Shown piece by piece: positions 1 to 1,331 of a stretch of 64,000 bases of DNA (within the stretch, counting starts at the first letter, position 1; every line of letters begins with the position of its first letter). The DNA lies in sequence record NC_028847.1. One strand, written 5' to 3'. The notes under the pieces are model-generated. The model was not told the DNA's origin and ran no database searches. It was given only the letters and a program-made list of their open reading frames with translations. A program made the position numbers and the translations under genes. The stretch comes from Escherichia phage QL01.

Positions 1-166
1 CTTCTTCGCCATAACACGAGCTATTCAGCCAATCTTCGAGACGAACTTCACCGTCATAATCGTCGAGCTCAACACCAAAACTTTGAGCAGAAGCCATATC
101 TTTTACTTTCTTATACAGTGCAGCCAGTTCAAGTGCAGCTTTTTCTAATTCATTAATATCAGACAT
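1..166 (-). CDS. hypothetical small protein, partial (start at 166, 3' end beyond window start)
   Basis: ATG at 166-164 (minus) preceded by AAGGTGA RBS; reads MSDINELEKAALELAALYKK...DWLNSSCYGEE; adjacent to the W-x-SS-x-x-C family. Confidence 0.4.
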   Translation of the reverse strand, partial: MSDINELEKAALELAALYKKVKDMASAQSFGVELDDYDGEVRLEDWLNSSCYGEE

Positions 167-177
167 TTTTTATCACC

Positions 178-390
178 TTAGCAAGACATAGAGGATGTAA
201 ACCAGAAACCTTCACCTTCCGGAATACCGTAGTCATCACGGACCCATTCGTAATCATCATATTCCGGGTTCTTTGGAGAAATGTATTCTCCACGACCAGA
301 AACACGGAACTCTTCACCCGTTTCGTCAGCCACAGACTGGCCTTTACGTACTAATTCACGGATTTGGTTTTCAATTTCATCAATAGTCAT
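178..390 (-). CDS. hypothetical small protein, W-x-SS-x-x-C C-terminal family
   Basis: 70 aa ORF ending ...GFWFTSSMSC; tightly packed with neighbours on same strand. Confidence 0.55.
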   Translation of the reverse strand: MTIDEIENQIRELVRKGQSVADETGEEFRVSGRGEYISPKNPEYDDYEWVRDDYGIPEGEGFWFTSSMSC

Positions 391-399
391 TTTATTTCC

Positions 400-681
400 T
401 TAACATTCAGAAGAAGAGGACACCCAACCACCATTTTCTAGGCTGGTAGTGTAATCATGTTGGTTTACAATAGCGTACTGAGCTTCACCGTATTCTTCCC
501 AGTGGGCAAGGTCGGCTTTCAAGGCGCCAGGAGAATAATAGTCACCGCCCATACCGCGAGCAGGGTATATATTAAAATGAGTCTCATATTTGTTTGCAAT
601 TTCCTCGGCACGACGAATAGCTTTATGGATATCATTTACTGCTTCAGCCAATTCTTTATTTTTATGGTAATCATTCATCAT
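400..681 (-). CDS. hypothetical small protein, W-x-SS-x-x-C C-terminal family
   Basis: 93 aa ORF ending ...GGWVSSSSEC; 9 nt from next gene. Confidence 0.55.
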   Translation of the reverse strand: MMNDYHKNKELAEAVNDIHKAIRRAEEIANKYETHFNIYPARGMGGDYYSPGALKADLAHWEEYGEAQYAIVNQHDYTTSLENGGWVSSSSEC

Positions 682-690
682 AGCGTTTCC

Positions 691-981
691 TTAGCACATT
701 GCCGAAGAGGAGATCCAAGCACCAACTGTAACGACGCCATTTTCAACTTCACCACCGTTGTTTTCAATTTCATCTTTAAACCACTGGGAGCATTCATAAC
801 CGACAGGATAATATGTACGGCCTGAACCATAATCACCAGTACCGAATTGGATACCATACTTATCGGCAATAGCTTCACATTCATGTTCGATGGTATTCAC
901 TTTATTCAGAAGAGCATAGATAGCCTTTTCTGCAGATTTCTCGTCATTGTGTTCCGGGATTTCAATTTCAATTTTATTCAT
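691..981 (-). CDS. hypothetical small protein, W-x-SS-x-x-C C-terminal family
   Basis: 96 aa ORF ending ...GAWISSSAMC. Confidence 0.55.
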   Translation of the reverse strand: MNKIEIEIPEHNDEKSAEKAIYALLNKVNTIEHECEAIADKYGIQFGTGDYGSGRTYYPVGYECSQWFKDEIENNGGEVENGVVTVGAWISSSAMC

Positions 982-1331
982 GATTTACATTCCTTAATAA
1001 AGGTTTCAAGGTCATTACGTTTAGTTTGTTTTACATACTCATTATAATTAGCCATAGCTAAAGCATATCTCTTTTTACGTGGCTTGTTTATTTTATTAGT
1101 TTGGGCAATATCAAAGACCCATGGGATAAAAAATCCTATTAAAGCCGGAACCCAAATCCATGCAAGGCTCATATCTTCAAACGGATGGCGAGGCATACCA
1201 TTAATAATCCCACCGACAAGAAATCCAATTATCCCTGCAGTCATACTAGTAGCAATGCCGAGGAATAAGGAAATAGCTATATCATAATCTGCTAATGCGT
1301 AACCAGGGTCGGTTTTACTAGGCTTATGCAT
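978..1331 (-). CDS. hypothetical membrane protein
   Basis: ORF 978..1418 trimmed to internal ATG (MHKPSK...) that abuts stop of upstream gene; two hydrophobic helices. Confidence 0.45.
   Translation of the reverse strand: MHKPSKTDPGYALADYDIAISLFLGIATSMTAGIIGFLVGGIINGMPRHPFEDMSLAWIWVPALIGFFIPWVFDIAQTNKINKPRKKRYALAMANYNEYVKQTKRNDLETFIKECKS

Follow-up and report, generated by a model that had tools for sequence, protein, structure and literature searches.

A minus-strand array of Cys-tailed small proteins in Escherichia phage QL01 belongs to a phage family genomically linked to a MenT-fold nucleotidyltransferase

Enzymes of the minimal polymerase-beta (pol-beta) nucleotidyltransferase fold move nucleotidyl or phosphoryl groups onto hydroxyls, be it the 3'-OH of a tRNA, the OH of an aminoglycoside or, in MenT autophosphorylation, a Ser or Thr residue, and those of the HEPN-MNT type VII systems, like GlnE, GlnD and DrrA, add a nucleoside monophosphate (NMP) covalently to a hydroxyl of a dedicated protein partner. 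Among the MenT toxins, which add nucleotides (NMP) to the tRNA 3'-OH, MenT1 is paired with an upstream-encoded antitoxin of 68 amino acids (aa), MenA1 (PMC7450476), the N-terminal helix of which prompts MenT1 to autophosphorylate at an active-site Thr (PMC11375011). The first 981 nucleotides (nt) of a 64,000-nt stretch of Escherichia phage QL01 (NC_028847.1; this whole stretch is referred to as the window) carry a minus-strand array of four tandem paralogous genes, encoding small proteins with a Ser-rich, Cys-terminated tail. In every phage examined, genes of this family are followed on the same strand by a gene for a MenT-fold nucleotidyltransferase of about 300 aa. The genomic coupling of the two families is tight and ancient, and it is very probable that they are also functionally coupled.

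The sequence-only reading of this DNA had described three consecutive minus-strand open reading frames (ORFs) of 70, 93 and 96 aa with Cys at their ends, plus a fourth, partial one. The former are borne out by the sequence, as are the start of the fourth at position 166 and its WLNSSC segment; its scope of three genes and a fragment has to be revised to a four-gene array, since the fourth gene also ends in the motif. Paralogue 1 (691..981, 96 aa) ends in GAWISSSAMC and bears the loop sequence DYGSGRTYYP (phrog_899, E 2.8e-23), paralogue 2 (400..681, 93 aa) ends in GGWVSSSSEC after a RGMGGDYYSP loop (E 2.4e-20), and paralogue 3 (178..390, 70 aa, isoelectric point [pI] 4.2) ends in GFWFTSSMSC after a GRGEYISP loop (E 6.2e-14); in both paralogue 2 and paralogue 3 the terminal Cys is the only one. 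Paralogue 4 (1..166) is cut by the window edge after its first 55 codons, which include an internal DWLNSSCYGE, and its complete form in phages PSD2002 and MX01, the former identical to the window over positions 1-166, has 74 aa and a terminal IWYPSSC (phrog_899, E 1.4e-9).

The small size of these ORFs is the one point in favor of dismissing them as chance ORFs or annotation artefacts, a view that retains virtually no probability and that we count as refuted by their significant paralogy, by hundreds of homologue clusters, by purifying selection and by their Shine-Dalgarno sites. Pairwise local alignments of the three complete ORFs yield z-scores of 5.8-7.4, with the observed score reached in none of 500 composition-preserving shuffles, and the terminal motif, for which chance predicts 0.0012 occurrences in the window's 570 stop-to-stop segments, is seen three times. 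Together with the phrog_899 matches of the three (E 6e-14 to 3e-23), these figures place the C-terminal likeness proposed earlier above chance. Comparison with the IME08 and MX01 orthologues returns ratios of non-synonymous to synonymous change (pN/pS) of 0.03-0.36, with values of 0.03-0.11 for paralogue 1 and 0.13-0.36 for paralogue 2.

A HMMER search of 1.84 billion representatives (E<=1e-3) extends the family to 372 clusters at 50% identity. Their common architecture begins with a long N-terminal helix, continues with a loop of the Y-G-M-G-G-T-Y-Y-P type and a small beta domain, and closes with a W-x-[S/A/P]-S-S-x-x-Cys tail that ends on the Cys. This invariant terminal Cys behind a Ser run, singled out by the sequence-only reading, is the most conserved feature across the 372 clusters. 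Of the representatives listed in addition to the query set, 148 in all, 136 have Cys as their last residue and eight more have it followed by a single residue. In an alignment of 129 sequences, restricted to members ending in Cys, the W, S and S of the tail are 100% conserved, and the next best conserved elements are A-E-x-I-A-D-E-x-G-x-x-F in the N-terminal helix and the Y-G-M-G-G-T-Y-Y-P loop, of which the Gly-Asp/Glu-Tyr segment noted earlier in the QL01 proteins is a genuine local form. The stretch between loop and tail is variable and acidic (family median pI 4.45), and the terminal Cys is the only Cys in 70 of 126 members. All three complete ORFs of the window carry the tail, and the loop in diverged form, and paralogues within arrays share 25-30% identity.

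The family had not been recognised in the earlier reading, and it is indeed absent from annotation resources: searches of the small proteins against Pfam, NCBIfam, PADLOC and the PDB sequence profile give zero matches, and the family is present only as PHROG 899, of 'unknown function', with database entries in which function, terminal motif and a link to a nucleotidyltransferase are all unrecorded. A tblastn search with the 93-aa protein retrieves 282 phage records, every one annotated as hypothetical, from Dhakavirus, Mosigvirus/RB69 and T4-like phages of Klebsiella, Enterobacter, Citrobacter, Serratia and Edwardsiella; the IME08 annotation and BFVD name ORF136c, ORF137c and ORF139c of RB69 as relatives. 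The AlphaFold2 (AF2) model of paralogue 1, with a predicted local distance difference test score (pLDDT) of 91.4, indicates a confident autonomous fold, for which no fold relatives were found, and long family members examined as Rosetta-stone fusions show no informative N-terminal domain. T4-type internal proteins, which are defined by an N-terminal capsid-targeting sequence, were set aside as a precedent; the conserved element is C-terminal here, and the enzyme linkage is the better lead. Array copy number varies among close Dhakaviruses: IME08 carries a fifth copy of 65 aa ending in SWVSSSYEC (locus L001, 5396-5593; phrog_4882), located between the 70-aa-type and 93-aa genes and absent from the window, MX01 and PSD2002. 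There is also a double-motif subfamily, with members in the window (1-166), in Phapecoctavirus ukendt (locus L026, 2413-2631) and in a metagenomic phage (locus L031, 2318-2542), in which an internal DW-x-[NS]-S-[SD]-C-Y-G-E is followed some 20 residues later by a terminal W-x-x-S-S-C, looking in sequence as if the tail had been duplicated.

The linkage to the nucleotidyltransferase emerges from both directions. Same-strand clustering of neighboring genes places the small family in 12 loci and the partner of about 300 aa in nine, the next cluster being present in five. The partner lies downstream on the same strand in 9/9 small-gene loci with enough downstream DNA, at a distance of -38 to 99 nt from the array in six of the loci (L005, L008, L009, L011, L013 and L016) and behind a few intervening genes in the remaining ones, and no such locus was found to lack it. 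Conversely, starting from the long-form partner, one to four Cys-tailed genes are found upstream in 14/14 further loci. These comprise a 576-kb megaphage contig (YGWSSSSSHC tail, 12 nt upstream), a TARA marine contig, locus L020 with its four-gene array, Acinetobacter phage phi1_092060, Pseudomonas phiPsa267, Phapecoctavirus ukendt (three copies, one of them double-motif), the jumbo Salmonella phage 7t3, the loci of five partner proteins picked blind to their upstream sequence, and two contigs of metagenome-assembled genomes (MAGs) from the genome collection. The total amounts to 23/23 loci, 17 of which have no gene between array and partner, with one to five diverged paralogues per single enzyme. 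In phage PSD2002, a partner of 319 aa is encoded on the same strand 943 nt beyond the position of the left window edge (position 1). Across the linked loci the partners are only 36-55% identical and the other neighbors differ, making the linkage hard to explain other than by functional coupling.

The module is a widespread, unannotated two-gene unit rather than a peculiarity of a single phage. A degenerate DNA pattern for YGMGGTYYP finds 13 matches in viral contigs, several of them jumbo phages of 355-389 kb, and none in 185,579 bacterial and archaeal genomes, a negative that is weak by itself because the pattern detects consensus-like members only. A scan of the same genomes with the partner profile constitutes a better test, and it yields two matches, both in metagenome bins with phage-sized contigs and both accompanied by Cys-tailed genes. 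In T4, no orthologue of either family is found in positions 1-50,000 and 60,000-75,000 (65 kb, including the syntenic region). The searchable literature holds no mention of PHROG 899, of DUF7275/DUF7277 or of their pairing, nor a description of such a pair for phage-encoded AbiEii/MenT-like enzymes, and a comparative paper on jumbo phages covers RlaP, the CCA-adding enzyme and Thg1, and not the pair described here.

The partner is a DUF7277-DUF7275 protein of about 300 aa (Pfam; phrog_2141), represented in Dhakaviruses by MX01 ORF122, and its family spans more than 2,300 clusters at 90% identity and 732 phage records. G5-S6 and D24-x-D26 are invariant in its alignment, an acidic residue recurs in a later strand, and the helical domain that follows is very conserved, its invariant positions being K124, H127, R128, H173, H193-D194, H197, E239-E240, E247-R248, C271 and W278. 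By its fold and its catalytic G-S...D-x-D...E signature, the partner ranks with the minimal pol-beta nucleotidyltransferases of the types represented by the MenT/AbiEii toxins and by ANT/Lnu, and it combines a MenT-like fold with motif I, hG[GS]x9-13Dh[DE]h. At the sequence level it does not belong to DUF1814/AbiEii (PF08843), with only marginal E-values of 0.051 for gp204 of Streptomyces phage Faust and 0.061 in one of 43 partners, and Pfam scans yield DUF7277 and DUF7275 alone, with no match to PF10127 (RlaP), despite the RNA ligase genes that lie near the module in some phages. The only label other than 'hypothetical' seen for the family is that of the homologue in Acinetobacter phage phi1_092060 (locus L021, 2662-3615), annotated as 'DefenseFinder protein', a name that presumably stems from automated structural matching to a defence nucleotidyltransferase of AbiEii/MenT type.

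Within a few kb of the module, unrelated phages encode Thg1, MazG-like and RNase T proteins, RNA ligase, polynucleotide kinase-phosphatase (Pnkp) and tRNA clusters (locus L019, 1738-5540; L020, 1-373; L023, 1857-2504; L027, 1-804; L022, 4846-6111). Gordonia, Streptomyces and KVP40-like Vibrio phages carry short-form relatives of the partner, of about 250 aa (phrog_6944), in which the DUF7277 sheet is largely missing (Gordonia phage Bachita gp17-18, locus L022, 2809-3890; Streptomyces phage Faust gp204-205, L023, 2878-3968; Vibrio phage V09, L024, 2705-3762). These relatives have no Cys-tailed genes, and are adjoined instead by a different small beta-rich protein (phrog_16046/18295/13591), which could possibly supply the missing part of the nucleotidyltransferase domain in trans; its candidacy as a homologue of the Cys-tailed proteins was rejected (hhalign probability of 1.25%).

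In the reading that we favor, while according it somewhat less than an even chance, the small proteins would serve the enzyme as dedicated partners and, through their tail, as true acceptor substrates. The invariant Ser-Ser-x-x-Cys end would be presented to the catalytic center of the nucleotidyltransferase, where the hydroxyl of an invariant Ser would be nucleotidylylated or phosphorylated, and the Cys thiol or carboxylate might help bind the catalytic metal or take part in a second step. One enzyme would thereby mature several diverged paralogues, acting early in infection as host-takeover or counter-defence effectors. The parts of this proposal do not stand equally firm, engagement of the active site by the tail being an evenly balanced matter and covalent modification of the tail a tentative and rather doubtful one. 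The residues of the small proteins that never vary are two hydroxyls and a terminal thiol/carboxylate, and the presence of a hydroxyl-targeting transferase fold encoded downstream makes the tail more plausible as a modification site. The earlier suggestion of a modification or a metal/thiol-dependent function at the tail can hence be regarded as plausible, now with a concrete candidate enzyme. The acceptor-substrate reading is slightly favored because each enzyme is accompanied by one to five diverged copies and possesses an additional, highly conserved DUF7275 domain, suggestive of more than plain nucleotidyl transfer. A further elaboration, to which we assign only a very low probability, would have the module operate as a phage protein-maturation system with a novel chemistry, in which activation of the invariant Ser by O-nucleotidylylation or phosphorylation, elimination to dehydroalanine promoted by the invariant His, Asp, Glu, Arg and Cys residues of DUF7275, and attack by the terminal Cys would close a thioether (lanthionine-like) ring at the C-terminus or install some other covalent warhead, applying the logic of ribosomally synthesized and post-translationally modified peptides (RiPPs) to whole folded effector proteins. 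We also considered that a LanD/CoaC-type host enzyme might decarboxylate the terminal Cys, an idea with nothing in its favor.

Several observations weigh against acceptor-substrate function. In the AF2 monomer, the chain ends in a short turn of helix (H92-95, pLDDT about 81) that packs after a strand, and the tail is not obviously free, a point that also tells against the two alternatives taken up next. The partner falls outside DUF1814/AbiEii by sequence, its short-form relatives function without any Cys-tailed protein, and in Dhakaviruses three unrelated small genes lie between array and partner. The recurrence of RNA ligase, Pnkp, Thg1, RNase T and tRNA genes points to RNA or tRNA, over protein, as the substrate. 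Everything beyond the genomic linkage, including the role proposed for the terminal Cys, is inference.

If the tail does contact the active site, an inhibitory pseudosubstrate version of that contact is nearly as likely as the acceptor-substrate one. The small proteins would then be antitoxin-like regulators that hold in check a MenT-like translation poison, used for host shut-off or competitor exclusion, much as MenA1 restrains MenT1; they would act through the N-terminal helix, through a Ser-Ser-x-x-Cys tail that plugs the active site as pseudosubstrate or metal chelator, or through both. We regard this as unlikely, though the foremost of the rival readings. With one to five paralogues per enzyme, strongly diverged at 25-30% identity, the layout speaks more for many substrates of one enzyme than for a 1:1 antitoxin, the small proteins bear no similarity to MenA, AbiEi or MazE-type antitoxins, and the phospho-acceptor Ser/Thr that precedes D-x-D in MenT is not conserved in the partner. 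Furthermore, toxin-antitoxin (TA) and abortive infection (Abi) modules reside in cellular genomes and prophages, from which this one is essentially absent (0 and 2 matches in 185,579 genomes, the latter both in phage-like MAG contigs).

A tRNA-centered role of the enzyme constitutes a serious third option, even if a rather improbable one: the partner would repair or remodel the 3' ends of tRNAs, while its acidic companions would either steer it to different RNAs, as specificity adaptors, or imitate the tRNA acceptor end, as decoys blocking host enzymes that attack those ends, with paralogues diversified in an arms race. The action of MenT-type enzymes on tRNA CCA ends (PMC7450476) is in line with this scenario, as are the low median pI, the variable acidic middle region and the arrangement in paralogue arrays, and the module is found near RNA ligase (Faust, L020), Pnkp (7t3), Thg1/RNase T/MazG (L019) and tRNAs (Bachita, Dhakaviruses). 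This neighborhood signal is anecdotal, the regions involved being gene-dense accessory DNA; the small-protein model does not resemble any known RNA or DNA mimic, and mimicry leaves the invariant Ser-Ser...Cys end unexplained. Somewhat less credible again is an independent function, in which the small proteins would be stand-alone thiol- or metal-dependent accessory proteins, such as oligomers sharing a metal or disulfide through the terminal Cys, or anti-defence binders, and in which shared regulation alone would account for their adjacency to the enzyme. The idea goes back to the sequence-only reading; the one conserved Cys, placed at an exposed terminus, the confident autonomous fold and the three genes that separate array and partner in Dhakaviruses are all compatible with it, but it has to contend with the 23/23 linkage to partners of 36-55% identity amid differing neighbors, and with the presence of the partner at every small-gene locus with enough downstream DNA.

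The junctions of the QL01 array are compact. The intergenic gaps of 9, 9 and 11 nt agree with the operon-like spacing of about 9 nt reported for these genes, and the start codons are preceded by TAAGGA or TAAGGTG, where TAA is the stop codon of the preceding array gene. Between paralogues 1 and 2 (682..690, minus strand), the TAA of paralogue 1 (691-693) and the following 9 nt form TAAGGAAACGCT ahead of the ATG, so that stop codon and Shine-Dalgarno sequence overlap; the corresponding sequences are TAAGGAAATAAA between paralogues 2 and 3 (391..399, minus) and TAAGGTGATAAAAA between paralogues 3 and 4 (167..177, minus). The Shine-Dalgarno sequence of paralogue 1 (AAGGAA, 990..995, minus) is located within the 3' end of an upstream membrane-protein gene, the TGA stop of which overlaps the ATG of paralogue 1. 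The overlap of stop and Shine-Dalgarno in the array is a layout typical of translational coupling. No strong promoter-like sites were seen inside the array. Two sigma-70-like matches on the minus strand, TTTACA-17-TATAAT (11/12; 2474-2502) upstream of e.6, which is the best of its type, and TTTACA-17-TATTAT (10/12; 2932-2960) upstream of a 132-aa gene, are candidate early promoters of a transcription unit that may run through the array, in a region where total matches do not exceed shuffle expectation.

Over its first 3 kb the window shares 98% identity with Escherichia phages PSD2002 and LHE83 and 97.6% with MX01, and these three phages are Dhakavirus (T4-like Straboviridae). The array sits in a minus-strand accessory block between e/nudE/e.2 and the e.6/e.8/tRNA genes. 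The consecutive genes upstream of the array (978-1418 and 1324-1788, minus) share a second C-terminal motif, (N/D)x(L/E)xF(I/V)xEC(R/K), exemplified by FIKECKS, FITECREYAKEVQNA and FIEECRK in MX01 e.2 (locus L002, 1511-2104), and in T4 (locus L003, 7958-9271) by FVIDCRKIK in e.3, FVKESRCKSQS in e.4 and FVKECREY in e.5. One part of it, AAG GAA (encoding K-E), serves at the same time as Shine-Dalgarno sequence for the gene that follows, and the motif may mark either an e.2-e.5 paralogue family or a constraint imposed by overlapping translation signals. The 146-aa ORF at 978-1418 is probably too long: its phrog_2330 match begins at residue 30, and the gene as annotated in MX01 and PSD2002 has 117 aa and an ATG near 1331 (MHKPSKTDPG), a start that overlaps the end of the upstream gene. 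Missing from the latter (1324-1788, 154 aa, phrog_8788) is a 24-aa segment, DLSFAEALEIIDLNLGIQRVEFAG, which its MX01 (178 aa) and IME08 (180 aa) orthologues retain, and it is this in-frame deletion that causes megablast to split the 3-kb query into two pieces.

Were the proposed model to hold, the module would represent a widespread and overlooked two-component system of large virulent phages, found in T4-like coliphages as well as in jumbo phages and 576-kb megaphages, in which a nucleotidyltransferase of toxin type is combined with Cys-terminated small proteins of a new class. It would provide a testable role for two blocks of phage 'dark matter', PHROG 899 and DUF7277/DUF7275 (more than 2,300 sequence clusters), and would extend MenT/AbiEii biology from bacterial toxin-antitoxin and abortive infection systems to the phage side of the conflict. 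The invariant eight-residue tail offers an immediate handle for mutagenesis and mass spectrometry, and its study could reveal a new protein modification at the C-terminal Ser-Ser-x-x-Cys or a new form of nucleotidyltransferase regulation.

Among known systems, three invite comparison. With the lanthipeptide and aminovinyl-cysteine (AviCys) RiPPs, where a C-terminal S-x-x-C-COOH spacing, as in epidermin, forms lanthionine or aminovinyl-cysteine rings, the QL01 array shares the terminal Ser-x-x-Cys (S93-x-x-C96, with a free carboxylate) and the tandem, precursor-like paralogues upstream of one enzyme gene. The phage proteins are folded domains of 60-140 aa and not leader-core peptides, and no LanB, LanC, LanM, LanKC, LanL or LanD Pfam domain is found in the array neighbors or the partner. 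The likeness to HEPN-MNT and GlnE-type systems is limited to the chemistry proposed here. The acceptor there is a Tyr in HEPN, or a PII, glutamine synthetase (GS) or Rab protein, whereas the candidate here is a Ser in a C-terminal tail; the small proteins contain neither a HEPN domain nor an Rx4-6H motif, and the partner, with about 300 aa and its DUF7275 domain, differs from an MNT protein of about 100-130 aa. With MenAT and AbiE, the module shares its layout, a small gene upstream of a nucleotidyltransferase gene, and the fold of the enzyme. The partner is nevertheless about 100 aa longer than MenT1, with an extra, very conserved helical domain, DUF7275, in which invariant His, Asp, Glu, Arg and Cys residues abound, and no antitoxin of known type (MenA1/MazE-like, or COG5340 AbiEi) is detected upstream of it with Pfam, NCBIfam, PADLOC, PDB or fold searches. 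The phage small proteins are folded, unrelated to MenA or AbiEi, present as one to five diverged paralogues and equipped with an invariant Cys tail, and the module is restricted to large virulent phages instead of bacterial chromosomes. We therefore rate the combination of a nucleotidyltransferase with a small upstream partner as a known layout, and the family of small partners itself as new and uncharacterised.

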